Positions 7,775 through 63,626 are shown, numbered from the stretch's first letter. The stretch is 64,000 nucleotides of DNA from an uncultured Candidatus Saccharibacteria bacterium (GCA_963820105.1 CAWFYI010000003.1:12475-76474); one strand, 5' to 3'. Notes: generated from the sequence alone by a model not told the origin. Translations and numbers: made by a program.

Positions 7775-7789
7775 TCCTAATATAACTTT

Positions 7790-8839: not shown

Positions 8840-8856
8840 ACCGGTATTGTATATGC

Positions 8857-10179: not shown

Positions 10180-11568
10180 TTAAGCATACAAATGCTCCTT
10201 GATTTCAGATATTGCCATGCGTAAAGACGCGTCGGCGCGAGCCTCACGGTCAATTTTGTCTACGGAATGAATAGCGGTCGTATGATCTTTACGGCCAAGC
10301 TCCCTGGCTATCTTCGGAAAACTTAATTTAAGTTCAGAACGCAATATATACATAGCAACCTGTCGCGGCACCACTATATCTTTGTCGCGCTTAGGGCCCA
10401 CTATATCCTCCATAGACACCTGGAAATGCCGCGCTGTACGCTCGATTATCTGCTTGGCGCTCAAGTGCTTAGGTCTGGTTTTGTTGACGCTCAGCAAGCT
10501 GGATGCGATGGCTAGTGTGGGTTCCAAACCGCGCATTTCACAATAAGCCAATAATTGGTTTAACGCCCCTTCTAATTCCCGGATATTGGTCTGCATACTA
10601 GTGGCCAAATATTCTACTACTTCATTGTCTAGCTCACTGTCGTGGTAGCCGGCTTTTGTCTGAACTATTGCACAACGCGTTTCAAAATCCGGCACCTGCA
10701 TATCAATCCCCATCCCCCCTGTAAAACGCGACTTGAGACGGTCTTCCAGGGTAGGAATGTTCTTCGGCGGCTTGTCGGCACTTAGGATTATTTGTTTGTT
10801 GGCCTCGTGCAAAGCGTTAAACGTATGAAAAAATTCTTCCTGGACCTTCTCTTTTCCAGCTATGAACTGTACATCATCCACGATTAGCACATCGGCGGTG
10901 CGGTAGTGCCTGGCAAAAGCAGCGGTCTTGCGAAAACGCAAAGCGTCTACAAACTCCTGCACGAATTGCTCGGTAGATATATAAAGCACCCTGGAGTCCG
11001 GGTTCCTGGCCGCAAGAGTATTACCCACAGCTTGGATTAAGTGGGTTTTTCCTATGCCCACGCCGCCATACAGGAAGAGGGGATTGTATTTGGCGCCAGG
11101 TTTCTGGGCTACTGACTGGCAGGCCGCGAACGCCAGCTCGTTCCCGTCGCCAACCACGAAATTATCGAAAGTATAGCGTTCGTTCAACCCCTGGCGGTAG
11201 GAGTGTCCTAAACCGTTGCCGGCACTGGCGGGAGTGTCCGGCTTGGGGGCCGCCTTAATCTCGGCTGCCGGCTCAACAACTTCTCTGTATTCAGAACGGC
11301 TCTTACTGGTTTGTGCCGAGACCGTGTACTCTATGTTGTTGACCGCGACACCATTTTTATCCAAGGTTTTGGTTATAAGATCGCCGTACTTACGCTCCAA
11401 TTGCTGTTTGATAAAGATATTGGGAACGCCCACTACCAGATTATCACCCTCGTGTTTGATAAGGTTCGTGTTTTTAAACCAGGTAACGTAATTGCCGTGT
11501 GAAACAGACAGCTCGATTTCTCCTAGAACAGTCTGCCATAAGACACCTGGCTGCATAGCACTCCCCAT
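10180..11568 (-). CDS. dnaA: Chromosomal replication initiator DnaA
   Basis: AAA+ Walker A is LYGGVGIGKTHLIQAVGN, Walker B is LIVDDVQF, and the C-terminal DNA-binding helix is GRKDHTTAIHSVDKI. Confidence 0.97.
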   Translation of the reverse strand: MGSAMQPGVLWQTVLGEIELSVSHGNYVTWFKNTNLIKHEGDNLVVGVPNIFIKQQLERKYGDLITKTLDKNGVAVNNIEYTVSAQTSKSRSEYREVVEPAAEIKAAPKPDTPASAGNGLGHSYRQGLNERYTFDNFVVGDGNELAFAACQSVAQKPGAKYNPLFLYGGVGIGKTHLIQAVGNTLAARNPDSRVLYISTEQFVQEFVDALRFRKTAAFARHYRTADVLIVDDVQFIAGKEKVQEEFFHTFNALHEANKQIILSADKPPKNIPTLEDRLKSRFTGGMGIDMQVPDFETRCAIVQTKAGYHDSELDNEVVEYLATSMQTNIRELEGALNQLLAYCEMRGLEPTLAIASSLLSVNKTRPKHLSAKQIIERTARHFQVSMEDIVGPKRDKDIVVPRQVAMYILRSELKLSFPKIARELGRKDHTTAIHSVDKIDREARADASLRMAISEIKEHLYA

Positions 11569-17801: not shown

Positions 17802-18614
17802 GTGCGTAAATTCGCCCAACGCTATCGGTACTCTATAATTCTGCTCAGGCAGCTGGTTAAGACCGACTTCAAACTGCGCTACCAAGGTTCGGTGCTGGGC
17901 TACGCTTGGTCGCTGCTACGACCCCTGTTCCTGTTCGTAATCCTGTACATCGTGTTCGGGGTGTTTCTAAAGGCCAAGGGCAACCCGCCGATCCCTCATT
18001 ACCCAGTCTATCTGCTGCTGGGCATTGTGCTGTGGAACTACTTCTCGGAAGTCACGGTGGGCAGTGTGGCGGCCATCGTTGGCAAGGGCGAGCTCCTGCG
18101 CAAGATCAACTTCCCCAAATACGTCATCATCCTGGCCGGCTCGTTCTCCGCGTTTATCAACCTGCTTATTAACTTCGTGGTGATAGCCATATTTATGTAC
18201 TTCGGCCATGTGGCGCTTACGTGGAACGCGCTGATTATGCTGCCGCTCATAGCGGAGCTTTTTATCCTGTCTGTCGCCCTGGCGTTCTTTTTAAGCGCGC
18301 TGTTCGTGAGGTTCCGCGACGTGACTTACATCTGGGAGGTCATCATGCAGGCGGCATTTTATGCCACGCCGATACTATATCCTTTGAGCATCATACCGGA
18401 CAAAGCGGCCAAAGTACTGTTGCTTAATCCAATGGCGCAGATTATCCAGGATGCCAGACATGTGCTGGTCACGCCGGCTTCCCAGACGATCTTTGATTTC
18501 TGGGGCGGCGACTATTTGATATGGGCGATTCCTCTGGGCATGACACTTATTATCGCGGTCCTGGGAGCGGTTTACTTCCGCAGTCAGTCCAAAAACTTCG
18601 CGGAGGAGGTGTAG
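17802..18614 (+). CDS. wzm: ABC-2 type polysaccharide/teichoic-acid export permease (Wzm/TagG-like)
   Basis: 270 aa with six predicted TM helices and a GTG start. Motif LLNPMAQIIQDARHVL. It is followed 1 nt later by the cognate ATPase. Confidence 0.85.
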   Translation: MRKFAQRYRYSIILLRQLVKTDFKLRYQGSVLGYAWSLLRPLFLFVILYIVFGVFLKAKGNPPIPHYPVYLLLGIVLWNYFSEVTVGSVAAIVGKGELLRKINFPKYVIILAGSFSAFINLLINFVVIAIFMYFGHVALTWNALIMLPLIAELFILSVALAFFLSALFVRFRDVTYIWEVIMQAAFYATPILYPLSIIPDKAAKVLLLNPMAQIIQDARHVLVTPASQTIFDFWGGDYLIWAIPLGMTLIIAVLGAVYFRSQSKNFAEEV

Positions 18615-18615
18615 C

Positions 18616-19848
18616 ATGCCGGACGAAGTAGTTATCCGCGCGGAAAAGGTCAGCAAGGACTTTGTGTTGCCGCACGAGAAAGTCAACTCGCTCAAAAGCC
18701 TGTTCACGGGCGCGGCCAAACGGCGCGGTCACAGGAAGAGCAAAGAGACCCAGCACGCCCTGCGCGACATCTCGTTCGAAATCAAAAAGGGCGAATTTTT
18801 CGGCATAGTCGGCCGCAACGGCAGCGGCAAGAGCACATTGCTGAAGATTCTGGCCGGAATCTACCAGCCTACGAAAGGCAAGGTCCACACCCGCGGCAAG
18901 CTGGTGCCGTTCATCGAGCTGGGCGTGGGCTTCAACCCGGAACTCACCGGCCGCGAGAACGTCTACCTGAACGGCGCTATGCTTGGCTTCTCGGAGAGGG
19001 AAGTAGAAGAGATGTACGACAGCATCGTGAAATTCGCGGAACTGGAACGCTTCATGGACCAGAAATTGAAGAACTACTCGTCCGGTATGCAGGTACGCCT
19101 GGCGTTTTCCATGGCCATCCGCGCCGAGGCCGACATCCTGCTCATAGACGAAGTCCTCGCCGTCGGCGACGCCGATTTCCAGAGGAAGTGTTATGACTAT
19201 TTTCGTAAACTTAAAAAAGAGAAAAAAACAGTCATCTTCGTAAGCCACGACATGAGCGCAATCAGGGGGTACTGTGACCGCGCGCTCATGATTGAAGACA
19301 GCGAAATCGTTTTCTCAGGAAGCGCTAACGACACCGCAAAAGAGTACACAAAGCTATTCATGCCCGAAGTTTATGCAGCTGATAAAAGGACAGAGCAAAA
19401 AGAAAATGCTAGAAAAACCAAAGCCAAAAAGTGGGGCGCTGGAGGTATAGATATTGTCAACCTCAGCATATCCAAACCAAGGTTTACTCAGAGTGACAAC
19501 GCTATAGAAGTAACCTACCAGATTAAGGCTACAGAAAGCTTCAAGGATGAAATAATCCCTGGGATAACTATAAGGGACGCAAGCGGTGAACCCATTTGCG
19601 GCACAAACACTAAAATAATTCACCCAGAAAAACGCTACTTCATAGGCGGCAACAGTGACAAAGTATTACGCATACGGTGGCATATTCCGAATATATTTAA
19701 CGGAGGTACATATACGATAGAACCTGCCGTACTGTCGGCAACTAATAATGATACATTGCAGTGGTGGGATGAAGCTGCGCGCTTCATTATTGTTAATGAC
19801 GAGAGCACCCCATACCCGGTAGCTCCGCACATCATCGCCGATATTTAG
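18616..19848 (+). CDS. wzt: ABC polysaccharide export ATPase with C-terminal carbohydrate-binding-type extension (Wzt/TagH-like)
   Basis: Walker A is GRNGSGKSTLLKILAG, signature is YSSGMQVRLAFSMA, Walker B is LLIDEVLAVGD. An extra ~150-aa beta-rich C-terminal domain (IDIVNLSI...IEVTYQIKA...GTYTIEPAV) resembles Wzt_C. Confidence 0.88.
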   Translation: MPDEVVIRAEKVSKDFVLPHEKVNSLKSLFTGAAKRRGHRKSKETQHALRDISFEIKKGEFFGIVGRNGSGKSTLLKILAGIYQPTKGKVHTRGKLVPFIELGVGFNPELTGRENVYLNGAMLGFSEREVEEMYDSIVKFAELERFMDQKLKNYSSGMQVRLAFSMAIRAEADILLIDEVLAVGDADFQRKCYDYFRKLKKEKKTVIFVSHDMSAIRGYCDRALMIEDSEIVFSGSANDTAKEYTKLFMPEVYAADKRTEQKENARKTKAKKWGAGGIDIVNLSISKPRFTQSDNAIEVTYQIKATESFKDEIIPGITIRDASGEPICGTNTKIIHPEKRYFIGGNSDKVLRIRWHIPNIFNGGTYTIEPAVLSATNNDTLQWWDEAARFIIVNDESTPYPVAPHIIADI

Positions 19849-22355: not shown

Positions 22356-24290
22356 CTAATTCGCTCCGGCTGTCGCAGTATTCCAGTACGGTCGGTTTGC
22401 ATTGTTATACAGCACCAGGTTGCCGTCCTGCTGTATGACCAGCCTAAGGCCAGGATAACCGGCGGTGTGGCTATACCATAGCGGGCGTCCATTATTGTCG
22501 TAGAGTACCAGGTTGCCATCCAATTGCATGGCCAGGAAAGACACTGACTTACCGTCAGTACCGGTTGACCACAACGCATGGGTAGGAGAGTACAAAACCA
22601 GATTACCGTCGGCCTGCATTATCAGATGGAAACGCCGATCAGCAGTATCTATGCTTTGGCCGGGATAGAGACGGGCCGCTGTTGCACCGGGCTTCAGTGA
22701 TGTATTCACGTAGGAAAGATGATCAGGATTATGAACCGTATAGCTTGCCCACAGGGCGGCGTTTGAGCTGCTGTAGACTACCATATTGCCATCTGTTTGC
22801 AGCACAAGCCTTGCACCGGAATTGCCCTCAGTCTGCGTACTCCACAAAGCCACGTTGTTTTGGTTATATAAAACCAAGTTGCCATCAGTCTGCATGACCA
22901 AGCGATTAGCGGAACTCCCCTGCGTCCCGGTTTCCCAAGAGATATTAAAATCTGAATACAGCACCAGATTGCCGTCGCTCTTGATGGTTAGGACAGACTG
23001 AGAGTCCGTTGATAACAATGAACTGCCTTTGTTAAGCGTCTGCCCGGATGTGAGGGTGGAGTTATTACTATTGTTTGCCGATCCTGTACTATTCACGTTC
23101 ACCGTCACGAAAAACCCCAGGTCATTAAGCCAGGTCTGGCCTTCGATTAGCGGATTGAAGTATTCGTTATAGGTGCCAGTAGTGCCGGGGGCCTGCATCT
23201 CAAACTGGAAAGTTCCCACATCTCCGGGAACGACCGAACTCTCGAGCAGCTGAGTCGGCCTGCTGTTGGACAGCCAATTTCCGTCAGCGAAACTGCTGGC
23301 CCGGTCCATCGGGCGCGAGGTGCCTAGATGCATGTTGGACTGGGTCCAAGTCTGGTAGCCTATATTTCTGGCTTTCAGCGTCATGTAAATCTTGCCCCCG
23401 GGCGCGACCGTAGGAGTTGCCGAGAACTGCTGTGTGCGACCGGCATCTGAATAGGCCCACTGGCCTTCATAGGCCCAGGCGTACGGCGTAGAAGTCTGGG
23501 TCGAGCCGAACCACAGCTGGAAGTAGTAAACGAAGTTATAACTGCCCGAATAGCCCGTCTCTGAGTACGGACCAACGTAGGGCGTGTAGCAGTAAAGCGA
23601 TGCTGTGGCGGCATTAGCTATAGTAATCGTCCTTGCCGAGCCACCGGAATTCGTGAAGGTTACCGTGTTGCCCGGGTAAAGCCCTGCCGAATAAAACCCT
23701 GCATGGGCGCTGGAGCAAGGGTAATTGTTGCCCGGGTGCCAGCTTAGCCAATCCGCATGATGAAGAGCGCCTTCGTAGTTATAGCGCAGTATCCAAGTGC
23801 CATTGTCTACTTGGCTGAAGAAACCCACATATCCGCTACAGGAGTTGTAGCCCATAGCGCAGTTTATCTGGGAAGCGGATGGAGAGGGGTCTGTTATAAG
23901 GGACTGTTCCTTTTCCAGCGTAGCGAGGATGCTGCGGGGACTGATTCCGTAAGCCTGCGCGGAGTCGAAGATTATCTGAGCTACCGATATGCGCTGGCCG
24001 CAGTGATGGTAATAGGGCGCAATGGTGGAGTCGCAAGCCTCTACGTCGGAGTAGCCTGCTATTCCGCCGTGCTCGCTGGACAGGAACGCCTGGATCTGAC
24101 TGGCATTCATGGAGCTGGTATTGGTGAACGTGGGATTGTCTATGAGATTGCTGGGGTTGTAACTGGGCGAAAAGGCATGGGCGCGCTGTAGCGGCAGCAT
24201 GATGCTGGCTGCCATCAGCAGAAATACAGACAACACCAGAAATGCAGCATTCTTTTTACTCAAACCGGTCCTAAGTGCTGAAACTAACAT
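22356..24290 (-). CDS. Secreted protein: lysozyme-like N-domain + NBR1-type Ig-like domain + two tandem bulb-type (monocot mannose-binding, MMBL) lectin domains
   Basis: Signal peptide is FLVLSVFLLMAASIMLPLQRAHA. The N-domain has QIIFDSAQAYGISPRSILATLEKEQSL. The Ig-like block is GGKIYMTLKARNIGYQTWTQ...GDVGTFQFEMQAP. Six QxDxNxVxY-type motifs occur in the last 232 aa (nt 22356-23054): KSDGNLVLY, QTDGNLVLY, QTDGNMVVY, QADGNLVLY, QLDGNLVLY, QQDGNLVLY. Confidence 0.8.
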   Translation of the reverse strand: MLVSALRTGLSKKNAAFLVLSVFLLMAASIMLPLQRAHAFSPSYNPSNLIDNPTFTNTSSMNASQIQAFLSSEHGGIAGYSDVEACDSTIAPYYHHCGQRISVAQIIFDSAQAYGISPRSILATLEKEQSLITDPSPSASQINCAMGYNSCSGYVGFFSQVDNGTWILRYNYEGALHHADWLSWHPGNNYPCSSAHAGFYSAGLYPGNTVTFTNSGGSARTITIANAATASLYCYTPYVGPYSETGYSGSYNFVYYFQLWFGSTQTSTPYAWAYEGQWAYSDAGRTQQFSATPTVAPGGKIYMTLKARNIGYQTWTQSNMHLGTSRPMDRASSFADGNWLSNSRPTQLLESSVVPGDVGTFQFEMQAPGTTGTYNEYFNPLIEGQTWLNDLGFFVTVNVNSTGSANNSNNSTLTSGQTLNKGSSLLSTDSQSVLTIKSDGNLVLYSDFNISWETGTQGSSANRLVMQTDGNLVLYNQNNVALWSTQTEGNSGARLVLQTDGNMVVYSSSNAALWASYTVHNPDHLSYVNTSLKPGATAARLYPGQSIDTADRRFHLIMQADGNLVLYSPTHALWSTGTDGKSVSFLAMQLDGNLVLYDNNGRPLWYSHTAGYPGLRLVIQQDGNLVLYNNANRPYWNTATAGAN

Positions 24291-24828: not shown

Positions 24829-24981
24829 ATTTTTATTTTATTCCGTCCACACACATAATACCATAAAGTTTAAGAAATTGACAAGCGCACACATCTGTTA
24901 AAAATTGCAAGACAACGTTAAATGAAAGATTGGTCTGTCCATATTTCTTTTCACGCACCGCGGCAGTATAGAATATACGTA

Positions 24982-27111
24982 ATGGATAAATCCAAATATC
25001 GGCCTTCTGTATTGAGGTTTTGGCTCTCCAAGGGCTGGGTGCAGTGGCTTCTGGCGGCCGTATTCTTCTTTTTTGCTTCCTGGTTCTTCATGGGCAGTGC
25101 CATCAATAATTGTTCGACCACCACGACCGCTTTGGGAAGTGATAGCACAGGCGGCTTAGCGTGGATGCAGTGGGCTGGCGGTAACGACCTGAGCTGGGGG
25201 CATACGGACAAAAGCAACTATCCTTACGGGGAAAATCTTAATCAACCGCAGAATATAACCTCAGCCCTGTTAATTTTTATATATAAAGTATTCGCCTCGT
25301 TAACTACACCTATATGCGGGCTCAACCTTTTAGAGCTACTGGGCTACATGTCAACCGGGCTGGTAATGTACGGACTGATCAGATGGTTGCTGAAACGCAA
25401 TGACATCGCGGTGTTCGCGGGGTTTGCCGCCACGTTCGTGCCTTTCCATCTTGTAAATGCCCAAAGTCACATCAATTACATATACGGGAGCACGTTTATA
25501 GGTGTGATATGGGCTTACCTGTGGCTCATAAGCAGGCCTACTTATAAAAGGGCGTTGGTATTAGGCGCGGTCAGCGCGATTGGATTCTACTTTGATGGTT
25601 ATTTTATATTTATCACCGGGGTCCTGCTTGCCGGCCTGTTTGCGTCTTCGTTCATATACGACCTGCTTAGATCGCTACTAGGCCACACCAATTCCGTCGC
25701 CATATGGAGGGAGGCCTTGCACAGAGCCAAGTATCTGGTGGTTGCAGGGCTTTCTTTAGGCTTGCTGCTGGCTCCAATACTAATTACTTACGAAAAGCAC
25801 GGTGCGGCTATAAATTACTCCTTGGCCACCGGCAGAAGTAAGGTAAAATCAGAAACCGAGCTATATGGGGTTAAGCCGATTGAGTTCGTACTCCCCAGCT
25901 ATAACAGCGCGTTGATGCCACCGGGCTACCCCAAATGGCGGGAGACCAAACTGCACGGCTCCAACTTTTCGGAGGCCACCTTATATATAGGTTACACGGT
26001 AATGATCCTGGCACTTATCAGCATCGCCGGCGTTTTTTACTGGAAACACAGACGCACTAAAGCGCAAAACATACCTTACGTTCACCTGGTATTCACGGCC
26101 GCTTTCACTTTCCTTGTTTGCTTGCTACTGTCGCTGCCGGCCGAAGTCACATTGTTTGGCAGACAGTTTCAGACCCCAGTGAACACATTAACTGATCTGA
26201 CGAGCGCATGGCGGACTCTGTCCCGGATGTTCCTGGCAATCGACCCTTTAATGATCGTTTTGGCAAGTTTGGGGCTGTATATTATTACTAAAAACAGGCC
26301 AAAGGCCGTACGCCTTGCCATCGTTATGATTTGCGGTCTATTGCTCTTCTTTGAATATTTACCGTGGCCGCTGCATGCCAATGGCGACCTGTACAAGGAC
26401 GCTCCGTCTACCTATAGACACTTGCGCAGGGATCACAACGTTAAACTAGTAGCTGAGTACCCGTTTGCCAGCTTTGTTGACACCCCGGAAATATTTACCT
26501 ACCAGCCGGTGGACAACAAGACCTTATTGAATGCTAGCACCTCTGTTATTTCGAGAGGTCCTTTCGATGCCAGCATCGCCGGGTTGAACGACCCTCAGAC
26601 CCTGGGTGTGCTGAAGCGCCTAGATGTGGACGTAATATTGGCGCATGGCTTCAGTTCCGACAATCCCGATTTAGTGACTTACTACCAAGCGCACAATACG
26701 CACCCCAACAACAAGACCGTGGCCGCTGACGCGCTGTATTCCTACACCATTCGCGACCCTGTAACGCCTCGAGACGCGTCGTTAATTATTAAGAAAGGTT
26801 ATGAATCGCTATCAGTCGACAACTATCAGATCAGTCATCGTTATGTAACCAATAAGGCGACCATGGGCATAGGCTCGGTAAATTACAGCCCCCTGGCTAA
26901 AAACTATGACGTACGCTTTGAAGTTGCCAGCATCTGTCCGGTTAACGCTCATGTCACAGTCATGCAATTTGGCAAGGTCTTATGGTCCGGCTCGGCCGGG
27001 GAACAACCTGTGCCTATAAATCTGGCTGTGGCCAGTAAAGACTTTTATGTGCAAACCGCTTACTGCTCAATTGGCATCACAAACATGAGTGCAGATCCCC
27101 TATCACCGTAG
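24982..27111 (+). CDS. Large polytopic membrane protein with extracytoplasmic C-terminal domain (GT-C/YfhO-like, putative)
   Basis: There are more than 10 hydrophobic helices in the first ~480 aa, then a ~230-aa soluble C-terminal domain. The preferred start is MDKSKYRPS at 24982 (ORF track gives 24922). The assignment rests on topology and context only. Confidence 0.5.
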   Translation: MDKSKYRPSVLRFWLSKGWVQWLLAAVFFFFASWFFMGSAINNCSTTTTALGSDSTGGLAWMQWAGGNDLSWGHTDKSNYPYGENLNQPQNITSALLIFIYKVFASLTTPICGLNLLELLGYMSTGLVMYGLIRWLLKRNDIAVFAGFAATFVPFHLVNAQSHINYIYGSTFIGVIWAYLWLISRPTYKRALVLGAVSAIGFYFDGYFIFITGVLLAGLFASSFIYDLLRSLLGHTNSVAIWREALHRAKYLVVAGLSLGLLLAPILITYEKHGAAINYSLATGRSKVKSETELYGVKPIEFVLPSYNSALMPPGYPKWRETKLHGSNFSEATLYIGYTVMILALISIAGVFYWKHRRTKAQNIPYVHLVFTAAFTFLVCLLLSLPAEVTLFGRQFQTPVNTLTDLTSAWRTLSRMFLAIDPLMIVLASLGLYIITKNRPKAVRLAIVMICGLLLFFEYLPWPLHANGDLYKDAPSTYRHLRRDHNVKLVAEYPFASFVDTPEIFTYQPVDNKTLLNASTSVISRGPFDASIAGLNDPQTLGVLKRLDVDVILAHGFSSDNPDLVTYYQAHNTHPNNKTVAADALYSYTIRDPVTPRDASLIIKKGYESLSVDNYQISHRYVTNKATMGIGSVNYSPLAKNYDVRFEVASICPVNAHVTVMQFGKVLWSGSAGEQPVPINLAVASKDFYVQTAYCSIGITNMSADPLSP

Positions 27112-36756: not shown

Positions 36757-38808
36757 ATGCGGGACCGTCTTTATAATTTCTTAAGAACGGCGCCCTTCGT
36801 GGTGCCGGCGGCTTTCGTGGGCTTTGGCGTGCCTGCTATGGCTCTGCTTCTGCTCGGCGCGTTCAAGACCTGGCTGGTCCTGCTGCTTGGGCTGGCAGGG
36901 GCGGCTTTGGCGTCCGTTGTAGCGGCCCGCCACAGCGCCGGGCTTAAACTGCCCGGGAGCGCGAGGGAACAGCGGCTCGTGGGCCTGGTCGTTCTATTGT
37001 TCCTGCTGGCGTGGACGGGGATTAACTTTAGGTACTCGGCGCAGGACATAATCGTTACCCGTGACCCTGCCATATATTCCGTTACCGGCGAATGGCTTAA
37101 GAATCACGATAACCTGGACATCAGGGCATCCGCTCCGCTAGTCCATGATCCGGGCGTGACGGCTGATTCGGCGGGCTTTGCTTCCTTGCCCGGGCATCCG
37201 GACAGGTTGTACGCGCAGGGCGTGCATCTGCTGCCCGCTTTGCTGGGCATGGCCGGCAGGCTGGGCGGTACGGCGTTCATGCTGCACATTAACGCCGTGA
37301 TAGGCGGCCTGGCACTGCTGGCTTTCTATGGCCTGGCAGCTTGCTTCGTGCGGCCGCGCTGGGCTTTGTTCGCGGTGGTGGCCCTGGGTCTCAGTCTGCC
37401 CATGATTTTCTTTTCGCGCGATACGTACAGCGAGCCGCTCGGTCTGTTGCTGACCATGGGCGCGCTGGCCCTGGTGTGGGCCGCGCAGACCAGGTCTTCG
37501 TCCAGAATCTGGCTCCTGGCCGGATTGGCCGCGGGCGCAGGCACTCTGGCAAGGGCAGATGCTTACTTGATAGTGGCCGCGTTGACGGCGTTCGCCATGA
37601 CCAGGCTTTGCTTCGCGGCCGCGAAGCAGCGCGGCCGGATAATCAAAGAGAGTCTATGGTTCGCACTGGGCATGGCCGCGACCACGTTGCTCGGTTGGCT
37701 GGACCTTACGATGCTATCGACCAATTATTACCATGACCTGAGACGGCAGATAATTAAGGAGCTCCTGCTTATTGTCTTGATAATAGCCGCCGGCATCGCG
37801 GTTACGGCGGTTTCCTGGAGAACCGATTTGCTCAAGAAACTAATACGCGGCACGCGCAAGTGGTATAAACCGCTCATCATTGCGGCCGCCGTCCTGCTCA
37901 GCATCTTTTTCCTGAGCCGTCCGCTGTGGTACGAGGGGCACGTGGTGGTGCCGAACGGTCTGATCGCTTCATTGCAGGCCGCCAAAGGCCATGCCGTGGA
38001 GCCTACCAGGAGCTACGCCGAGATGTCGGCCTATTGGGTTATATGGTACATCGGCCCGGTGCTCGCGCTGGCTGCTCTTATCGGCCTGACCATGTCCGCT
38101 TTGGATCTGACCGGCAAGCGGCCGCGGCAGACGTTATTGCCGCCGGTGCTGGTGGTGGCCGGCATCGCTTTCGTCTACCTGCTCAGCCCGGACGTCTCGC
38201 CTGATCAGGTCTGGGCTTCCAGAAGGTTCCTGCCGGTGGTTTTTCCCGGATTCTGTCTGTTCGCTGTCATAGCGACCGAACATTACTGGCGGCGCTATCT
38301 TGGCTCGTACAAGGCTGCAATACAGCTCACCGCCGCCGCCCTGCTGATGCTCGTAGTGCTTCTGCAGTCGTTTTACTATATTAAGCCCTCTTTGCGCGTC
38401 AAAGCTTACGCGTCGGAGGTAGAGCACATAAATAAGGTATGCGCGGCCTTGCCTGATCATGCCGCAGTATTCCTGACAGGCAGTGAAGCATTTAATATGG
38501 GCCAGACAATCAGAACTTTCTGCAAAGTGCCGGCAGTCAGGATTCTGTACGCGGACGCCACCAGCTTCCGTATGGAAGCACGTACGGCCGCCAACAATAA
38601 GCTTACCCCCATAGTTGTTACGGCAACCGGCGCCGACGGTAATGCCAGCAGCATACTGGCCGGCCAGCTTCACATGACCCTGGTAGACCGTGCTGAATAT
38701 CAGGAACTGTCGCGCAGACTTTATCATCCGCCCCGGCAGATGGCGCATCTGGCACAGACAGTCCTGGCGGGCCGCTTGCAGCCTGACGGCTCGGTGACGC
38801 CGTTATAG
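36757..38808 (+). CDS. Large polytopic membrane protein, GT-C-like (ArnT/PMT-type topology), putative glycosyltransferase
   Basis: 683 aa with about 12 or more TM helices, rich in Ala/Leu/Gly. The first loop is RYSAQDIIVTRDPAIYSVTGEW and the C-terminal domain is soluble. It starts 4 nt after the uxs stop. It is visibly GC-richer than its neighbours. The function is inferred from topology and context. Confidence 0.5.
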   Translation: MRDRLYNFLRTAPFVVPAAFVGFGVPAMALLLLGAFKTWLVLLLGLAGAALASVVAARHSAGLKLPGSAREQRLVGLVVLLFLLAWTGINFRYSAQDIIVTRDPAIYSVTGEWLKNHDNLDIRASAPLVHDPGVTADSAGFASLPGHPDRLYAQGVHLLPALLGMAGRLGGTAFMLHINAVIGGLALLAFYGLAACFVRPRWALFAVVALGLSLPMIFFSRDTYSEPLGLLLTMGALALVWAAQTRSSSRIWLLAGLAAGAGTLARADAYLIVAALTAFAMTRLCFAAAKQRGRIIKESLWFALGMAATTLLGWLDLTMLSTNYYHDLRRQIIKELLLIVLIIAAGIAVTAVSWRTDLLKKLIRGTRKWYKPLIIAAAVLLSIFFLSRPLWYEGHVVVPNGLIASLQAAKGHAVEPTRSYAEMSAYWVIWYIGPVLALAALIGLTMSALDLTGKRPRQTLLPPVLVVAGIAFVYLLSPDVSPDQVWASRRFLPVVFPGFCLFAVIATEHYWRRYLGSYKAAIQLTAAALLMLVVLLQSFYYIKPSLRVKAYASEVEHINKVCAALPDHAAVFLTGSEAFNMGQTIRTFCKVPAVRILYADATSFRMEARTAANNKLTPIVVTATGADGNASSILAGQLHMTLVDRAEYQELSRRLYHPPRQMAHLAQTVLAGRLQPDGSVTPL

Positions 38809-48021: not shown

Positions 48022-48360
48022 ATGAGCGATTTCGGGGTGTTAAAGCAGCTGGGACTGAACCAAAGCGACATCAGTTGTTATGTATGCCTGATTGAACAAG
48101 GTCCGGCAACGGCACAGGGGTTATCCAAGAGGCTTAGGATGTCGCCAACCAATCTATACGCGGTACTGGAAAAGTTGTCAGATCAGGGTTTCATTGATGC
48201 ATTCAAGCTGACCACCGCACCGGCATTGTTCAGAGCCAAACGATTGGACAGAGCGCTTAGCGCGAACTACATGCACCGTCGGCACCTGGTGCTGCCACTG
48301 TGCCACGAATTGAATATTCCATCGCCGCCTGCGTTGCCGCCGCGCTGCTGGCAACAGTGA
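48022..48360 (+). CDS. TrmB-like winged-helix transcriptional regulator (small)
   Basis: LKQLGLNQSDISCYVCLIEQGPATAQGLSKRLRMSPTNLYAVLEKLSDQGFI matches the TrmB N-terminal wHTH pattern. Confidence 0.55.
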   Translation: MSDFGVLKQLGLNQSDISCYVCLIEQGPATAQGLSKRLRMSPTNLYAVLEKLSDQGFIDAFKLTTAPALFRAKRLDRALSANYMHRRHLVLPLCHELNIPSPPALPPRCWQQ

Positions 48361-48383
48361 ACTAATAGTGGCATAATGCTAAT

Positions 48384-48866
48384 GTGAACGAAAAGCAAAC
48401 ATCCGAAGGCAAGACCATAAGGCCGACCAAGAAGCAAAAGGAATTGCTCGGCTTCATAGAATCATTTATCAGCGAACACGGTTATAGCCCGAGCTACCGT
48501 GAAATCATGGCGGGGCTGAATTATACATCGGTGGCGACGGTTTCGCTGCATGTAAATAATCTTATAAAGCGCGGGCACTTGGCCAAGCGTGATCACTCGG
48601 CCCGTTCGCTGGAAATCGTCAAACAAGGCGAGAGCAAGGAGCCCACGAAAATTACCTCCAACCAGATAGCTCCAGGAGAGGAGAAGTGGCTGATCGAGAA
48701 GGTTGAGCACGCTTTCAAACAGGTCGAGGGCAGCGGCAGGCCGGACGATGACAATTTGGATAATCTGCAGATCCTGCTGGGAGCGTTAAAAGTTCTGGGC
48801 CTGGACGGCGCTTCGCAGAGTTTCGCGCCGCGGCTGACCGCGCTGAAACAGCGCCAGTCATCTTAG
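48384..48866 (+). CDS. LexA-N-terminal-domain-like DNA-binding protein lacking the S24 peptidase domain
   Basis: KKQKELLGFIESFISEHGYSPSYREIMAGLNYTSVATVSLHVNNLIKRGHLAKRDHSARSLEI matches the LexA DNA-binding domain. The C-terminal 80 aa show no GDSM / Ser-Lys dyad motifs. GTG start. Confidence 0.6.
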   Translation: MNEKQTSEGKTIRPTKKQKELLGFIESFISEHGYSPSYREIMAGLNYTSVATVSLHVNNLIKRGHLAKRDHSARSLEIVKQGESKEPTKITSNQIAPGEEKWLIEKVEHAFKQVEGSGRPDDDNLDNLQILLGALKVLGLDGASQSFAPRLTALKQRQSS

Positions 48867-48892: not shown

Positions 48893-48921
48893 TTGACAGC
48901 CTGCAATTTTGGTCGTACTAT
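48893..48921 (+). promoter_or_regulatory. Sigma-70-like promoter for the riboswitch operon
   Basis: TTGACA (48893-48898), a 17-nt spacer, then TACTAT (48916-48921). Confidence 0.45.
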
Positions 48922-48927
48922 CAGACA

Positions 48928-49082
48928 CGCTATATGCGTTTTGCAATAGAGCATTACGCGTTTGGGGAAGAAGGGTGAAATTCCCTCACTGTGCCGCAAC
49001 TGTGAAAGTCAGATGACCAAATAGCGATTAATCGAATCGAAACCTTCGAGCAAAGGTCCTGACGGTCTCACAACTGTATCCC
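48928..49082 (+). promoter_or_regulatory. Cobalamin (B12) riboswitch aptamer
   Basis: The core at 48964-49018, GGGGAAGAAGGGTGAAATTCCCTCACTGTGCCGCAACTGTGAAAGTCAGATGACC, matches the conserved GGGAA...GGTGAAAxTCC...CCGCxACTGT core and a B12-box-like AGTCAGATGACC. It lies in a 248-bp 5' leader. This was not verified with a covariance model. Confidence 0.65.
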
Positions 49083-49120
49083 CCTCCGCTTGGAATGTTT
49101 CAGTCGGAGGATTTTTGTTT
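49083..49120 (+). terminator. Expression-platform hairpin + U tract; the stem also sequesters the Shine-Dalgarno sequence
   Basis: CCTCCG (49083-49088) pairs with CGGAGG (49105-49110), followed by TTTTTGTTTT (49112-49120). GGAGG is the only SD-like element before the TTG start at 49115. Confidence 0.55.
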
Positions 49121-49753
49121 TCCAGGCTCAAACAACACATTCCAGTCTTCGCGCCGCTTGGCGCCGGCCTGCTAATTATTACTTTGATAACCATTATGGG
49201 CGGCCTGTGGCAGTATAAATATCAACTTGACCACTCATCCAGCCCTTACTCGCCGGCCTTAATCGCGCGCAATACCAAAATCACCGGTGAATCCGGTATC
49301 CCGCGACAGGCTGGCACCCAAAACGTATCGCCGGGCAACGGCAGCGTTCTGTCAGGCAGTACGAATACTGTAAAATCGAATACCTACAACACTGACTGGA
49401 CAGCCTCTGCGAGCAGTCCGGGCAGTGCCCAAGCCGCTTCGAGTACCTCGTCTGGCTCCGCGATCGTAGCTGTATCGTTAAGCGTTAACGGCAGCTACGC
49501 GGGCAAGGTTACACTCCTCAGCTCCGGCAACCAGTGCGACGTATTAAGCAAGGCCCGCAGTGAAGGCGTCATCAATTATCTGGATATGCGTTATGACCCG
49601 CAAAATAAGTCCTATGCAGTTTACGTCATCAATAATATTGGGGATAGCAACTCAGTCTGGTGGACTTATACAGTTAACGGCGGATGGGTACCCGGATGTA
49701 GCAGTACCCCTGTACACAACAATGATTCAGTGAACTGGCAGTACATAAAATGA
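49115..49753 (+). CDS. Membrane-anchored protein with C-terminal DUF4430-type (transcobalamin beta-domain-like) module
   Basis: N-terminal TM is PLGAGLLIITLITIMGGLW, followed by a Ser-rich linker. The C-terminal ~95 aa are VAVSLSVNG...CDVLSKARSEGVINYLDM...YVINNIGDSNSVWWTYTVNGGWVPGCSSTPVHNNDSVNWQY. The TTG start lies in the U tract; an alternative ATG at 49196 would truncate the TM helix. Confidence 0.7.
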   Translation: MFSRLKQHIPVFAPLGAGLLIITLITIMGGLWQYKYQLDHSSSPYSPALIARNTKITGESGIPRQAGTQNVSPGNGSVLSGSTNTVKSNTYNTDWTASASSPGSAQAASSTSSGSAIVAVSLSVNGSYAGKVTLLSSGNQCDVLSKARSEGVINYLDMRYDPQNKSYAVYVINNIGDSNSVWWTYTVNGGWVPGCSSTPVHNNDSVNWQYIK

Positions 49754-49765
49754 TAAGGAGCAACG

Positions 49766-51046
49766 ATGTCTAGACTACTGATTAAGAGAGCGCTGGTAGG
49801 TACGATAGCGGTGATAATGTTCGCGGCGCAGATGCCACTGACCGCTCTGGCCGCGACGGACCAAGCGGCCCTGTCCGCCGCCCAAGCAGGGGTTAATTAT
49901 CTGGGAGCCAATCAGAATGCCGATGGGAGCATCTCGGGTAGCTTCGGTGGGACGAGTGATTGGGCGGTCATGGCTATCCAAGCTGACGGGAAACAGGCCG
50001 CCGCATTCAGTAATGGCGGCGCCTCAGCGCTAGATTTCATGAAGACGGACGTGCCCGGTCCGGCATCGGCGGCCACGGACGTGGAACGCAAGATTATTGC
50101 TATCGCGGCTGCCGGTCAGGACAGCAAAACTTTCGGCGGCTTTGACTACGACTCCGCGCTTGCCGGCTATCATGCCGGTCAACAGATCGGTGATCCGACT
50201 TTGCTGACTGATGACATGTTCGGTGTGATTGCGGCCGACGCGTCCAAAGATTCGGCACTGTATAGCACAGCGCAGGACGGACTTGACTATCTATTGGCTC
50301 ATCAAGGGACTGACGGCGGCTTCAGCTATACCACTAACAGCTGCGCCTACTGCGGAAGCGACAGCAGCGACACCGCCGCCGCTATCATAGCCATGCAGGC
50401 AGCGATATCCATTGGGTTGTCGAACACGAATCTTACGAGCGATGAAGCCAAAGCCACGGCTTATTTATTGAATACGCAGCAGCCGGATGGGGGCTTCGGG
50501 GCCGATATCTACAGCGCGTCGGATGGCGATTCGACCGCTTGGGGCTTAATGGCGCTGAATAGCGCCGGTGACGCCGCTGGCACCCAGGCGCTGGCGGCAC
50601 GTGACTGGCTTATTAATAACCAGAATGCCGATGGCGGCTTCAGCTACGGCGCCTATGGTATTACTGCCAGCGACACCTACACGACGGCACATGCCATCAT
50701 CGCAATCCTTGGCACGACGTGGCTGTTACAACCCAGCCCCATTCACGGTTCGCCGCCCCCGCCCACAGTGACCCCGCCTTCACAGGCAACGCCAGCCAAC
50801 CAGCCTGTCATCGGCACGCATACAACTACGTATACGACGCCGGCCGATACTCCAGACACAAGTCCTGCGCCCCAAGTGAAGGCGGCCAGTACGCCCAAAC
50901 CATCCAGCGGTAAAACGGTCGGCCCGAAGTTTGCCGGCGCAGGGAAGACCAGCTCACACAACATTTACTTTGCCGTCTTACTTGGTATCATTGCAGTAAT
51001 GTGGTTCGCATTCGAACCGCGGAAAAACAGGAGAGGTAAAATATGA
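49766..51046 (+). CDS. Surface protein with prenyltransferase/terpene-cyclase-like alpha/alpha-toroid repeats, Pro-rich stalk and C-terminal TM anchor
   Basis: It has a signal peptide (AVIMFAAQMPLTALAAT). Repeated motifs are NADGSISGSFGG, TDGGFSYTT, QPDGGFGAD and NADGGFSYGAY, spaced about 45-60 aa apart. The linker PPPPTVTPPSQATPANQP precedes a C-terminal helix IYFAVLLGIIAVMWFAF and basic tail. Confidence 0.7.
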   Translation: MSRLLIKRALVGTIAVIMFAAQMPLTALAATDQAALSAAQAGVNYLGANQNADGSISGSFGGTSDWAVMAIQADGKQAAAFSNGGASALDFMKTDVPGPASAATDVERKIIAIAAAGQDSKTFGGFDYDSALAGYHAGQQIGDPTLLTDDMFGVIAADASKDSALYSTAQDGLDYLLAHQGTDGGFSYTTNSCAYCGSDSSDTAAAIIAMQAAISIGLSNTNLTSDEAKATAYLLNTQQPDGGFGADIYSASDGDSTAWGLMALNSAGDAAGTQALAARDWLINNQNADGGFSYGAYGITASDTYTTAHAIIAILGTTWLLQPSPIHGSPPPPTVTPPSQATPANQPVIGTHTTTYTTPADTPDTSPAPQVKAASTPKPSSGKTVGPKFAGAGKTSSHNIYFAVLLGIIAVMWFAFEPRKNRRGKI

Positions 51047-51666
51047 AAACCAACCTAACCCAAAATACTAAGATGGGCGTTGCCCTGACCATAGTCTTCA
51101 GCGCGGTCTTGATGCGTCTGGTGCCGCACATACCGAACTTCGCACCCGTGACTGCCGCGGCGCTGTTCGGCGCGGCCTATCTGCCTAGACGCTACGCGTT
51201 GCTGATGCCGTTGCTGATAATGGCCATAAGCGATTACGCATTGCTCTATATCAGCCCGTTCGGACACCCGGTGCTTAACCTCAGCCACTTACAACCCTTG
51301 AGCGCGATGCTCAGCGGTACCACAGCGTGGGTATGGGGAAGCTTCATGATCAGCGGACTGCTGGGCCTGTCGCTACGCAAGAATCCCGGTGCCCTCCGGA
51401 TTGGCGGCACAAGCCTGCTGGCCTCCGCGCAATTTTTTCTGATAACGAATTTTGGCGTGTGGGCGGCGGGCGCGTACGCGCGGGACTGGTCAGGTCTGGT
51501 TGCCAGCTATGCCGCCGGGTTGCCATTCCTAAGATGGACAATGCTAGGCGACTTGTTCTATACCGCCTGCTTCTTCGGTCTCTACGCGCTGGTACTTAAC
51601 CCCGAAGGGTTTTCACTGCGTCTGTCGCGTCTCAGGCGTCGCCAGGCTACTCAAATACGAACATGA
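51043..51666 (+). CDS. Six-TM membrane protein, DUF6580-like putative transporter
   Basis: Motifs are RLVPHIPNFAPVTAAALFGAAYL, IMAISDYALLY and QFFLITNFGVWAAGAY. The start forms an ATGA overlap with the upstream stop. Confidence 0.6.
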   Translation: MKTNLTQNTKMGVALTIVFSAVLMRLVPHIPNFAPVTAAALFGAAYLPRRYALLMPLLIMAISDYALLYISPFGHPVLNLSHLQPLSAMLSGTTAWVWGSFMISGLLGLSLRKNPGALRIGGTSLLASAQFFLITNFGVWAAGAYARDWSGLVASYAAGLPFLRWTMLGDLFYTACFFGLYALVLNPEGFSLRLSRLRRRQATQIRT

Positions 51667-52265
51667 AGACGCCGGCCCGGATAGGTATTTACGCTGGTAC
51701 GTTTGACCCGGTGCATAGTGGGCATGTTGCTTTCGCCTTGCAGGCACTGAAAGCGGCTGATCTGGAGAAGGTCTGCTTCCTGCCGGAGCGCAGGCCGCGC
51801 CACAAGCTGCAGGTCGAGCATTTCGGGCACCGCGCGGCTATGCTGGCGCGGGCGCTCAAACCCCATCCGCGGCTGGAGCTACTGGAGCTTGAAGATTCGA
51901 ATTTCAATGTTAGCCGTACCCTGCCGAAACTTAAGAAGCGTCTCCCGGATAGCGAGCTTGTATTCCTGTTCGGTTCGGACGTTGTGCAGGGCCTCGCGGA
52001 CTGGCCCGGCGCCGGCCGCTTCTTAGAAAACGCCGAACTTGTCATAGGCATACGGTCGCGCGACAGGCGAAGCGGCTTGCGCAAGGTCATCGAGGCCTGG
52101 CCGGCGCAGCCTAAGTCCGTGACCATGTTCGACAGCTACGCGCCGGCCGTATCATCCGGTATAGTCCGCGAGGCCCTGCGCGGCGGCAAGGGAACGGCAC
52201 CCGGCCTGCTTTCCAGCGTGGAACGCTACAGCGACCGCCACTGGCTGTACGTTTCTATAACCTAA
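51663..52265 (+). CDS. nadD: Nicotinate/nicotinamide-nucleotide adenylyltransferase
   Basis: IGIYAGTFDPVHSGHVAFALQA carries the HxGH motif; CFLPERRPRHK and the late SSGIVRE block follow. The start forms an ATGA overlap with the upstream gene. Confidence 0.8.
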   Translation: MKTPARIGIYAGTFDPVHSGHVAFALQALKAADLEKVCFLPERRPRHKLQVEHFGHRAAMLARALKPHPRLELLELEDSNFNVSRTLPKLKKRLPDSELVFLFGSDVVQGLADWPGAGRFLENAELVIGIRSRDRRSGLRKVIEAWPAQPKSVTMFDSYAPAVSSGIVREALRGGKGTAPGLLSSVERYSDRHWLYVSIT

Positions 52266-52273
52266 TCTTGGGG

Positions 52274-52939
52274 CTAACCCTGTTTCTTGGCAATCTCGGC
52301 ATTGATGATTTTCTCTACCGCGCTAACGCCGGTGGAATAGGGCAGATCTATTTTTTTGCCGTCCAGGAAGAACGTCGGCGTGCCCTGTATCTTGAGCTTG
52401 TCGCCCTCGGCCATGTCGGCGTTGATCAAATCGTTGACCTTGCTGCTCTGATAGTCGGACTTAAACTTATCGGCGCTCAGACCGACCTGCTTAGCGAAAT
52501 TGACGAAGTACTTGTTAAGCGGATCACTGCTGGCTACCCAACCCGATTTGCCGCTTGGATCCTGGTTATCGTACAGCGCGTCATGCATCTGCCAGAATTT
52601 GCCCTGTATGGCCGCCGCTTCGGCCGCGCGGGCGCCCGCGAAAGCATTCTGGTGGATCTGGGTAAGCGGAAAGTTGCGGAACTGGAAGTAAATCTGATCG
52701 TTCAGATCGGCTGCGACCTGTTTGATTACGGGATAAGCGGCGCCGCAGTAGGGACACTCGTAGTCGCCGTACTCTACCAGTTTCACACCGGACTTACCTT
52801 TGCCCTCGACATGCTGCGTCAACTTACTGCCGCCGCCCGAGGAGCTGGGAGCATTGGCTTTCTTATTGCCGGTCAATAAGAAGATGCCGGCGAACACCAG
52901 CACCACTATGACTATAACCCCCCAGAACTGTTTAGACAT
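52274..52939 (-). CDS. DsbA-family thiol:disulfide oxidoreductase, membrane-anchored
   Basis: N-terminal TM is FWGVIVIVVLVFAGIFLL. CxxC lies in YGDYECPYCGAAYP, and the cis-Pro region is IQGTPTFFLDG. Confidence 0.8.
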   Translation of the reverse strand: MSKQFWGVIVIVVLVFAGIFLLTGNKKANAPSSSGGGSKLTQHVEGKGKSGVKLVEYGDYECPYCGAAYPVIKQVAADLNDQIYFQFRNFPLTQIHQNAFAGARAAEAAAIQGKFWQMHDALYDNQDPSGKSGWVASSDPLNKYFVNFAKQVGLSADKFKSDYQSSKVNDLINADMAEGDKLKIQGTPTFFLDGKKIDLPYSTGVSAVEKIINAEIAKKQG

Positions 52940-62864: not shown

Positions 62865-63626
62865 ATGCCCGAGATTATCCTAAAGGTGAAGAATCTCAAG
62901 AAACTGTACGACGGCAAGCCGGCCGTGGACGGTATTTCATTTGAAGTTAAAAAAGGCGAAGTGTTCGGCATACTCGGTCCTAACGGCGCTGGCAAGACCA
63001 CCACGCTTGAAATGATCGAGACCCTGCGCGAGATCGACGGCGGACAAGCGACAGTCGCCGGCATCAACGTAGCCGAACAGCCCAATGTTATTAAACAGGT
63101 TATCGGCGTCCAGCCGCAGACGCCGGCTTTCCAAGACAAGCAGAAGCTGTCGGAAATTATCGAGATGTTCGCGGCGGCTTACGGCGAGAAGGTCGATCCC
63201 AAGGAGTTCCTTGACGACGTACAGCTCGGCGACAAGGCCGGCAGTTTCCCCGAACAACTATCCGGCGGCCAGCGCCAGCGCCTCAGCATCGCCACGGCTT
63301 TGGTGCACAGCCCGAAAGTTTTCTTTCTGGACGAGCCGACCACCGGGCTCGACCCCCAGGCCCGCCGCAACCTCTGGGAGCTGATCGAAGAAGTGCGCGA
63401 CCGTGGCGTCACCATCATCCTGACCACGCATTACATGGAAGAAGCCGAACAGCTCTGCGACCGCGTCGCAATTATGGATAATGGCAAGATTATAGCGCTC
63501 GACACGCCCAAGAAACTGGTAAAGCAATTGCTGGATCGCGGTTTCACCAAGAAGCAGGAGGTTGAACAGGCCGATCTCGAGGACGTCTTCATAGACTTGA
63601 CGGGCAAGGGGCTGAAAGAAGGTTAG
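62865..63626 (+). CDS. ABC transporter ATP-binding protein (ABC-2/DrrA-like exporter subfamily)
   Basis: Walker A is GPNGAGKTTTLEMI, signature is LSGGQRQRLSIA, Walker B is FFLDEPTTGLD, and the H-loop is TTHYMEEA. Confidence 0.9.
   Translation: MPEIILKVKNLKKLYDGKPAVDGISFEVKKGEVFGILGPNGAGKTTTLEMIETLREIDGGQATVAGINVAEQPNVIKQVIGVQPQTPAFQDKQKLSEIIEMFAAAYGEKVDPKEFLDDVQLGDKAGSFPEQLSGGQRQRLSIATALVHSPKVFFLDEPTTGLDPQARRNLWELIEEVRDRGVTIILTTHYMEEAEQLCDRVAIMDNGKIIALDTPKKLVKQLLDRGFTKKQEVEQADLEDVFIDLTGKGLKEG

Follow-up and report, generated by a model that had tools for sequence, protein, structure and literature searches.

How might a bacterium of the candidate phyla radiation (CPR) capture and import vitamin B12? 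Many B12-requiring bacteria have no known transporter for the cofactor, and CPR bacteria such as Saccharibacteria are obligate scavengers whose cofactor uptake is largely uncharted. The question is raised by a 64,000-nucleotide stretch of DNA from an uncultured Candidatus Saccharibacteria bacterium (GCA_963820105.1, CAWFYI010000003.1:12475-76474), referred to below as the window. A first-pass annotation had singled out positions 48893-51666 as a riboswitch-controlled operon encoding two separate, transcobalamin-like surface proteins and a DUF6580-like membrane protein. Our analysis indicates that this locus is probably a cobalamin-repressed operon for B12 scavenging in a Saccharimonadales (CPR) bacterium, in which the products of the first two open reading frames (ORF1 and ORF2) would capture the vitamin and that of the third (ORF3), a DUF6580 protein, would transport it. 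The assignment to Saccharimonadales (TM7) follows from the source names attached to proteins identical or nearly identical to those of the window. Judged from the linkage of these genes across phyla, the B12-uptake reading of the cassette is well supported. The features are as follows.

48893..48921, + strand: sigma-70-type promoter TTGACA-17-TACTAT (consensus match only, 10/12 positions)
48951..49027, + strand: cobalamin riboswitch aptamer of the adenosylcobalamin (AdoCbl)-II class (RF01689, clan CL00101; Rfam covariance model)
49043..49056, + strand: near-invariant CCTTCGAGCAAAGG element, candidate antiterminator or kissing-loop partner (kept in 9/10 aligned leaders)
49083..49121, + strand: expression platform, a CCTCCG...CGGAGG hairpin (49083-49110) and then a T-run (minimum free energy (MFE) and centroid folds)
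49115..49753, + strand: ORF1, membrane-anchored DUF4430/SLBB (transcobalamin beta-domain-like) protein (TTG start, 212 aa)
49766..51046, + strand: ORF2, secreted alpha/alpha-toroid on a Pro/Thr stalk with a C-terminal transmembrane (TM) anchor (426 aa)
51043..51666, + strand: ORF3, DUF6580 six-helix membrane protein, predicted cobalamin translocator (207 aa)
51663..52265, + strand: nadD, nicotinate-nucleotide adenylyltransferase (overlaps ORF3 by ATGA)

A class-II cobalamin riboswitch in the operon leader

The leader core at 48964-49018, taken for a cobalamin riboswitch in the first-pass annotation, falls inside a match to RF01689 whose score of 47.5 bits (E 2.3e-8) exceeds the gathering score of 36.5; this match covers positions 1-81 of the 81-position model and is the sole Rfam match within the window. 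The promoter proposed upstream of it holds up as a consensus match, and it lies 30 nt 5' of the aptamer. Across 10 aligned Saccharibacteria leaders, the aptamer core is unchanged and the P-stem pairs carry compensatory changes, with double changes in 5 of the 19 base pairs predicted by RNAalifold. The riboswitch also recurs in place: it lies upstream of the cassette in 8 of the 10 Saccharibacteria loci having enough upstream DNA (L001, L003, L005, L006, L007, L009, L012, and L013) and likewise in L018 and L081, with sub-threshold matches at the same place in L014, L015, and L016. A chance match was ruled out because the score exceeds the gathering score and the position is conserved. The MFE of the whole leader is not unusually stable (z = -0.23); thus, thermodynamic stability alone gives no support, and the evidence consists of the covariance-model score and conservation.

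Downstream of the aptamer, the Shine-Dalgarno (SD) sequence GGAGG (49106-49110) forms the 3' arm of the leader hairpin, and the TTG start codon of ORF1 (49115) lies within the T-run that follows. The CCTCCG...GGAGG arms, the T-run, and the TTG codon are retained in 7 of the 10 aligned leaders, the loop-proximal stem being variable; an eighth leader (L081) retains only the 3' GGAGG and the T-run. This hairpin was not called by a generic terminator scan because of its bulges. The CCTTCGAGCAAAGG element is a candidate antiterminator since, in the RNAalifold prediction, its TTCGAGC pairs with GCTTGRA in the 5' arm of the hairpin. Like other class-II RF01689 riboswitches, the leader combines a full-length aptamer scoring above the gathering score with an expression platform that involves the ribosome-binding site; unlike them, it has a platform that also resembles an intrinsic terminator, with the TTG start codon inside the T-run. 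The AdoCbl-II class reportedly prefers aquo- and methyl-cobalamin and acts via a kissing loop (Johnson et al. 2012, Nature).

From these elements, a mode of repression can be proposed. At high cellular B12, the riboswitch would bind cobalamin, and the conserved hairpin would then form and hide the ribosome-binding site, with the start codon carried in the T-run, so that transcription and/or translation of the operon would be shut off. At low B12, the operon would be expressed. Three translationally coupled genes had been described downstream of the leader. Coupling is apparent between ORF2 and ORF3, which overlap by ATGA; ORF1 and ORF2 do not overlap, as 12 nt with an AAGGAG SD sequence lie between them, and a fourth gene, nadD, had been omitted. 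Directly adjoining the promoter on its upstream side (48022-48866) are two small regulator genes, one encoding a 112-aa TrmB/MarR-like helix-turn-helix protein and the other a 160-aa protein with a LexA DNA-binding domain only and no peptidase domain.

Gene linkage of DUF6580 across phyla

The wider family links the cassette, and DUF6580 especially, to B12, as the first-pass annotation had supposed for this operon. A set of 80 DUF6580 loci from GTDB genomes, with two more from assemblies, was mapped with family hidden Markov models (HMMs) and Rfam. A DUF4430 gene lies directly upstream of DUF6580 in 54 of 83 loci, and a toroid gene stands between the two in 24 of 83, being fused to DUF4430 in L028. 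Cobalamin-clan riboswitches were found in 32 of the 82 loci scanned for them. A gene for an NrdJ-type (B12-dependent) ribonucleotide reductase (RNR) is located upstream of DUF6580 in 23 of 83 loci, and one for a PduO-type adenosyltransferase downstream in 13 of 83. Thus, DUF6580 is tied to B12 by six kinds of neighbors (riboswitches, DUF4430, toroid proteins, NrdJ, PduO, and BtuB-like receptors), the linkage extending across phyla.

These neighbors occur in recurrent arrangements. Pattern A, in which the riboswitch is followed by the DUF4430, toroid, and DUF6580 genes, is that of Saccharibacteria and relatives. In pattern B, found in Levybacteria, Woesebacteria, and many other CPR bacteria, the order is NrdJ, riboswitch, DUF4430, DUF6580, and PduO. 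For example, L035 encodes an adenosylcobalamin-dependent RNR (NrdJ_Z, TIGR02504, 580 bits vs. a cutoff of 400) and a PduO_Nterm protein (189.6 vs. 108). In a Dehalococcoidia locus, a Cobalamin riboswitch (99.9 bits) is followed by nrdAB, DUF4430, and DUF6580. Pattern C, in diderm lineages, lacks DUF4430; instead, a riboswitch-controlled TonB-dependent receptor, for which the best model is TonB-B12/BtuB, adjoins DUF6580. This arrangement was found in Acidobacteriota, Omnitrophota, and Formosa; in L075, the order is riboswitch, receptor (best model TonB-B12), and DUF6580, and the same three elements are adjacent in L079 and L076.

One known and one proposed transporter were recognized through comparable gene contexts. 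In Lactobacillus delbrueckii, an nrdJ-cbrS-cbrT-pduO cluster led to the prediction, later proven, that CbrT is a B12 transporter (PMC5997447). Pattern B loci match this cluster, with DUF6580 in the place of CbrT. In another instance, BtuM of Thiobacillus denitrificans was found via its co-localization with btuB (PMC6072759), and it is by the same logic that DUF6580 loci beside BtuB-like receptors are read here.

Several further observations were made in these loci. In L024 (7169-7246), L026 (7099-7167), and L050 (7089-7213), the DUF6580-PduO genes are immediately followed by another B12 riboswitch. The one in L024 stands ahead of an ORF of 560 aa (7335-9017) that matches neither Pfam nor NCBIfam, another unannotated B12-regulated gene. 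In L077 (4523-5952), a Cobalamin riboswitch (77.9 bits) is followed by a 455-aa ORF, also without a Pfam or NCBIfam match, and then by DUF6580; this ORF may encode a different, unrecognized capture protein. CPR-type cassettes also occur in metagenome-assembled genomes (MAGs) labeled as uncultured Gammaproteobacteria (L014, L016, L018, L021, L026, L029, L030, L034, L041, L045, L049, L050, and L061), one of which, L021, is a complete chromosome of 915 kb. These labels are probably wrong. Two unrelated Rfam matches near DUF6580 (L016 5761-5827 and L030 4587-4719) are a DUF3800-II RNA (68.1 bits) and a SAM riboswitch (44.8 bits, barely over its gathering score).

The predicted capture proteins

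The first gene had been described as encoding an anchored protein that ends in a DUF4430-type domain, and this description is borne out. ORF1 consists of a single N-terminal hydrophobic anchor (residues 7-33), a Ser/Thr/Ala/Gly-rich linker of about 80 residues, and the C-terminal domain, where PF14478 (DUF4430) matches residues 160-211 with 22.4 bits (E 1.7e-4), just below the Pfam cutoff of 23.8. Most of 70 ORF1 homologs reach the gathering score, and syntenic counterparts score 48.0 (L072), 43.5 (L036), and 31.9 bits (L035). The TTG start is supported by an N-terminal MF that is conserved among the homologs. Cys141 is invariant and Cys195 nearly so. A profile search of the PDB with the ORF1 family gave no match. 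As the first-pass annotation had stated, transcobalamin-type proteins have DUF4430 as their C-terminal (beta) domain (PMC4350170; PMC1796856). From its domain content, ORF1 is predicted to be an extracellular B12 binder.

ORF2 likewise agrees with its earlier description as a signal-peptide protein carrying a toroid on a Pro-rich stalk with a C-terminal anchor. It comprises a signal peptide, four QxxDGG(F/I) repeats, a Pro/Thr stalk, and a TM helix at residues 397-418, and it scores above the Pfam cutoffs for Prenyltrans (PF00432, 33.7 bits vs. 26.5) and SQHop_cyclase_C (PF13243, 33.1 vs. 26.1). In the AlphaFold2 (AF2) model, the predicted local distance difference test (pLDDT) score exceeds 94 over residues 31-330, followed by disorder at about 335-397 and a helix at 398-416. 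The suggested likeness of the two proteins to a split transcobalamin stands for the DUF4430 half and is generic for the toroid half. PF01122, the family of eukaryotic cobalamin binders, gave no match to ORF2 in the Pfam scan even at E up to 1, and the ORF2 family profile returned only terpene cyclases (E 4e-23) and prenyltransferases from the PDB, without transcobalamin. In a Foldseek search with the ORF2 model, single-domain terpene cyclases came out on top (TMq 0.50-0.52), and rat transcobalamin (8ixu; TMq 0.45) and intrinsic factor (3kq4) ranked 41 and 48, among glycosidase toroids. By these model comparisons, the likeness of ORF2 to transcobalamin is at the level of fold class only, no better than that of the glycosidase toroids.

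These relationships raise the possibility that ORF2 is not a B12 binder at all but an extracytoplasmic terpene-cyclase-, prenyltransferase-, or thioester-domain-type enzyme or binder acting on envelope components, merely traveling with the DUF4430-DUF6580 pair. Its nearest relatives by sequence and structure, the missing PF01122 match, and the many lineages that run the DUF4430-DUF6580 pair without a toroid, making the toroid dispensable for the core function, fit such a role. An active class II terpene cyclase was rejected because the protein is secreted and lacks the DxDD general-acid motif: D.DD occurs nowhere in ORF2, whose only DD is in LLTDDMF at residue 149. A secreted, stalk-mounted position is also implausible for isoprenoid chemistry. 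In addition, the toroid always stands between two B12-linked genes, under the riboswitch, and it is found naturally fused to DUF4430. Weighing these points, an envelope role for ORF2 appears improbable.

The fusions are informative for the preferred reading of ORF1 and ORF2 as a capture pair. The toroid and the beta domain are separate genes in the window; the one-chain layout, with the toroid N-terminal and DUF4430 C-terminal, is seen in the homologs P0239, P0231, P0238, and P0240. The toroid and DUF4430 are functionally linked, being neighbors in about 25 loci. The natural fusions argue that the two domains cooperate, a point also made by published fusions (PMC1796856), and ORF2 is therefore predicted to be the partner of ORF1. 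A tblastn search of PLSDB plasmids with the fused homolog P0239 gave no match. In a Paceibacterota MAG (L028, 1090-2991), a single ORF directly upstream of DUF6580 matches both the DUF4430 and the toroid HMMs, constituting a natural syntenic fusion. Because many lineages have only the DUF4430-DUF6580 pair, the toroid, as far as gene content indicates, is an add-on rather than the core of the system. ORF2 also carries a CxxC (Cys193/Cys196) within the family consensus CxxCGSDSNDTAAA; like the Cys141/Cys195 pair of ORF1, it probably represents a disulfide outside the cytoplasm or a metal site. At 52274-52939, there is a convergent gene for a DsbA-like thioredoxin.

The capture route had been called uncharacterized, which does not hold. 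Burroughs et al. defined a bacterial transcobalamin-like SLBB clade in 2007, whose members are located at the surface, are fused to alpha/alpha-toroids in either order, and occur in operons with CbiO/CbiQ-like genes in organisms without B12 synthesis, from which B12 scavenging was predicted (PMC1796856). More recently, a split alpha (toroid)/beta pair, lsa1839/1840, was described beside an ECF (energy-coupling factor) transporter in the lsa1836-1840 operon of Lactobacillus sakei (bioRxiv 10.1101/864751), with the same division into separate toroid and transcobalamin beta-domain-like proteins as in ORF2 and ORF1. The capture module is thus prior art, as regards the bacterial proteins that resemble transcobalamin, the toroids that accompany them, and the split layout. 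The window pair resembles transcobalamin, intrinsic factor, haptocorrin, and the bacterial SLBB clade in pairing a DUF4430/SLBB beta domain with an alpha/alpha-toroid. Unlike the eukaryotic proteins, it consists of separate, individually anchored proteins with a toroid of the prenyltransferase/terpene-cyclase type, without PF01122. The bacterial SLBB proteins are secreted or anchored, often toroid-fused, predicted B12 scavengers; their published neighborhoods contain CbiO/CbiQ-like genes (PMC1796856), whereas the window cassette contains DUF6580 instead.

The L. sakei operon also suggests another substrate, as its deletion lowered heme uptake (10.1101/864751). The cassette could import a different tetrapyrrole such as heme, or DUF6580 could be a membrane receptor, an anchor, or a corrinoid-processing protein rather than a translocator; BtuM, for instance, is a predicted transporter but also has decyanase activity (PMC6072759). 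About one DUF6580 locus in four has no B12 context, which would suit either variant. Yet it is specifically cobalamin riboswitches, NrdJ, PduO, and BtuB-like receptors that accompany DUF6580, and no other candidate translocator was noted beside the cassette in CPR loci, as probed with family-specific models only. Both variants together are accordingly considered very improbable. Major facilitator superfamily (MFS) genes flank the cassette in L081 (upstream) and L036 (downstream, opposite strand).

DUF6580, its window, and the proposed route of uptake

Returning to B12, the scavenging route can be outlined as follows. ORF1, on its N-terminal anchor and long Ser-rich linker, would display the DUF4430/SLBB domain, the B12-contacting beta half of transcobalamin. 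ORF2, on its C-terminal anchor and Pro/Thr stalk, would display the toroid and probably close over the ligand together with ORF1, as in transcobalamin. We infer that the captured corrinoid is then handed to ORF3 and carried across the membrane, with DUF6580 acting alone, like BtuM, or using an ECF module encoded elsewhere to energize transport. The analysis shows which riboswitch and which domains are present, how the proteins are laid out in the membrane, and that the genes are linked across phyla; binding of B12, its clamping between ORF1 and ORF2, the hand-off, and energized translocation by DUF6580 are inferred.

The assignment of ORF3 to a six-TM, DUF6580-like family is secure, since PF20221 matches with 156.8 bits against a cutoff of 27 (E 7e-46). 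Six TM helices, at residues 7-25, 34-46, 54-67, 94-109, 117-141, and 149-185, and a further helix at the C-terminus make up the AF2 model (pLDDT 91.3). In size and topology (about 20 kDa, six TM helices in the model), the protein is of the kind expected for an ECF S-component. The family comprises 5,332 representatives at 50% clustering. Its invariant residues R25, P28, H29, N32, D64, N136, W140, and D170 are candidate functional residues. Literature searches, including those on DUF4430, on B12 enzymes of Saccharibacteria/Patescibacteria, and on other transporter names, returned no earlier DUF6580-B12 link and nothing on DUF6580, and the NCBI name of the protein is only "putative transport protein."

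Remote comparisons give DUF6580 a weak but consistent S-component flavor. With the DUF6580 model as the Foldseek query, the only matches with a TM-score above 0.4 were the S-components PanT, RibU, and FolT (0.41-0.47, E 0.7-2.6). Among 66 diverse family members, the commonest secondary Pfam matches were ECF_trnsprt (PF12822) and ECF-ribofla_trS (PF07155), found in 6 of 66 with a best E of about 1.5e-3. ORF3 itself had no S-component match in the Pfam or NCBIfam scans, and no NCBIfam model was significant. Neither ORF1 nor ORF3 nor any of the family profiles A1, A4, and A6 found a meaningful match among PDB sequences, and three DUF6580 queries retrieved neither a BtuM nor a CbrT chain nor any significant solved S-component. 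Kinship of DUF6580 with CbrT or BtuM is therefore not detectable by sequence. The first-pass statement that the locus holds no BtuCDF, BtuB, or ECF-CbrT is correct by sequence and is tempered by this S-component-like signal. The window scan covered 46 of the 57 ORFs that were 90 aa or longer, and it detected no Btu protein and no ECF S or T component (EcfT/CbiQ-type) among them. The ATP-binding cassette (ABC) parts in this set are a Wzm/Wzt pair at 17802-19848 (Wzt at 18616-19848) and one further, unassigned ABC ATPase at 62865-63626, whose partners run off the window end.

Given these similarities, capture may proceed as outlined with DUF6580 being a very divergent group-II ECF S-component that uses a shared EcfA/A'/T module elsewhere, in which case the whole would belong to the ordinary ECF-CbrUVT type of transporter. 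Genes for group-II S-components usually lie apart from those of the ECF module that they use (PMC5997447), and DUF6580 holds the place of CbrT in nrdJ-...-pduO clusters; the fold matches and the Pfam co-matches point the same way. On the other hand, none of the solved S-components is matched significantly by sequence, and EcfT/CbiQ-type proteins were not found among the scanned window proteins. An ABC ATPase was directly beside DUF6580 in none of the 83 loci when probed with one Wzt-type ATPase domain, the nearest matches lying 2 kb (L018, opposite strand) and 5 kb (L049) away. Moreover, the diderm members pair with BtuB-like receptors, as does BtuM, which is ECF-independent. On balance, membership in an ECF transporter is rather unlikely.

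Like the ECF-CbrT/CbrUVT systems of Firmicutes, the cassette combines a small six-helix membrane component with extracytoplasmic accessory proteins and, in some genomes, clusters with nrdJ and pduO. Unlike ECF-CbrT, its membrane component is a DUF6580 protein without a significant S-component match, no linked EcfA/A'/T genes were detected with the single ATPase probe, and its host is a CPR bacterium, not a Firmicute. In the CbrUVT nomenclature of Rodionov, which is in use, CbrU, CbrV, and CbrS may correspond to DUF4430 and toroid genes. BtuM is an S-component-like protein of about 22 kDa that has been proposed to import B12 without an ECF module (PMC6072759). DUF6580 resembles it in having relatives situated by riboswitch-controlled BtuB-like receptors. 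It differs in having no detectable sequence similarity to BtuM and no conserved counterpart of its cobalt-ligating cysteine; the single cysteine of ORF3, Cys176, is not conserved.

What appears to be new is a candidate role of DUF6580 as the cobalamin translocator, in the place normally held by the ECF component CbrT. A broader proposal is that DUF6580 constitutes a new, ECF-module-independent family of cobalamin importers, the principal means of B12 entry for Patescibacteria/CPR and for scattered members of the Chloroflexi, Acidobacteriota, Omnitrophota, and Bacteroidota. In monoderm-type envelopes, the substrate would come from transcobalamin-like proteins tethered to the membrane, and in diderms from BtuB-like receptors. 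This proposal is offered tentatively, its prospects being slightly short of even.

Several observations weigh against the uptake route outlined above. The DUF4430 match of the window itself (22.4 bits) is short of the Pfam cutoff (23.8); ORF2 has no PF01122 match and is nearer to terpene cyclases than to transcobalamin by both sequence and fold; and the DUF6580-S-component link is statistically weak (Foldseek E 0.7-2.6; Pfam E ~1e-3 in 6 of 66; none to CbrT or BtuM in the PDB). The heme phenotype of the homologous L. sakei operon (10.1101/864751) belongs here as well. About 20 DUF6580 loci, mostly from Acidobacteria and Bacteroidales, show no B12 signal; therefore, the family may not have a single function, and not every member need carry B12. 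Within the window, the 46 scanned proteins included neither a B12-dependent enzyme nor an adenosyltransferase. Finally, nadD is an essential gene translationally coupled downstream, an awkward arrangement for a tightly B12-repressed operon.

The nadD product matches CTP_transf_like with 60.5 bits, and its best NCBIfam models are NadD equivalogs, which it hits below cutoff (TIGR00482, 99.6 bits vs. 112.45). Its ATGA overlap with the DUF6580 stop makes it look co-transcribed with the B12-repressed operon. A role as a conserved cassette member was rejected, as the only other genome checked (L081) has a hydrolase gene downstream; by gene order, nadD is an operon passenger in this genome only. A promoter-like site within ORF2 (50964-50991) might give nadD B12-independent expression.

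Elsewhere in the window, recF, dnaN, and dnaA lie together on the - strand (7790-11568), which makes it probable that the region of the chromosomal replication origin falls within the window. The segment 43-7774 encodes a TraG-like P-loop protein, followed by a 1034-aa ORF without a Pfam match, as well as a 777-aa protein that carries phage-tail-lysozyme and CHAP domains, and an orphan ORF of 438 aa; a module for host attack or resembling type IV secretion may be encoded here. The surface-polysaccharide cluster at 13903-47747 is very large and contains many GT4/GT2 glycosyltransferase genes, the Wzm/Wzt ABC exporter, and Wzy-like ligase and flippase genes, along with a B_lectin-domain protein (22356-24290) and large ORFs at 24922-27111 and 36757-38808 without a Pfam match.

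For the biology of these bacteria, the cassette makes DUF6580 a directly testable candidate for a B12 importer. It also carries the bacterial ancestry of the transcobalamin architecture beyond Firmicutes, to a form that is split and tethered to the membrane. If the proposed role is true, B12 dependency and cross-feeding in microbiomes could be better predicted.

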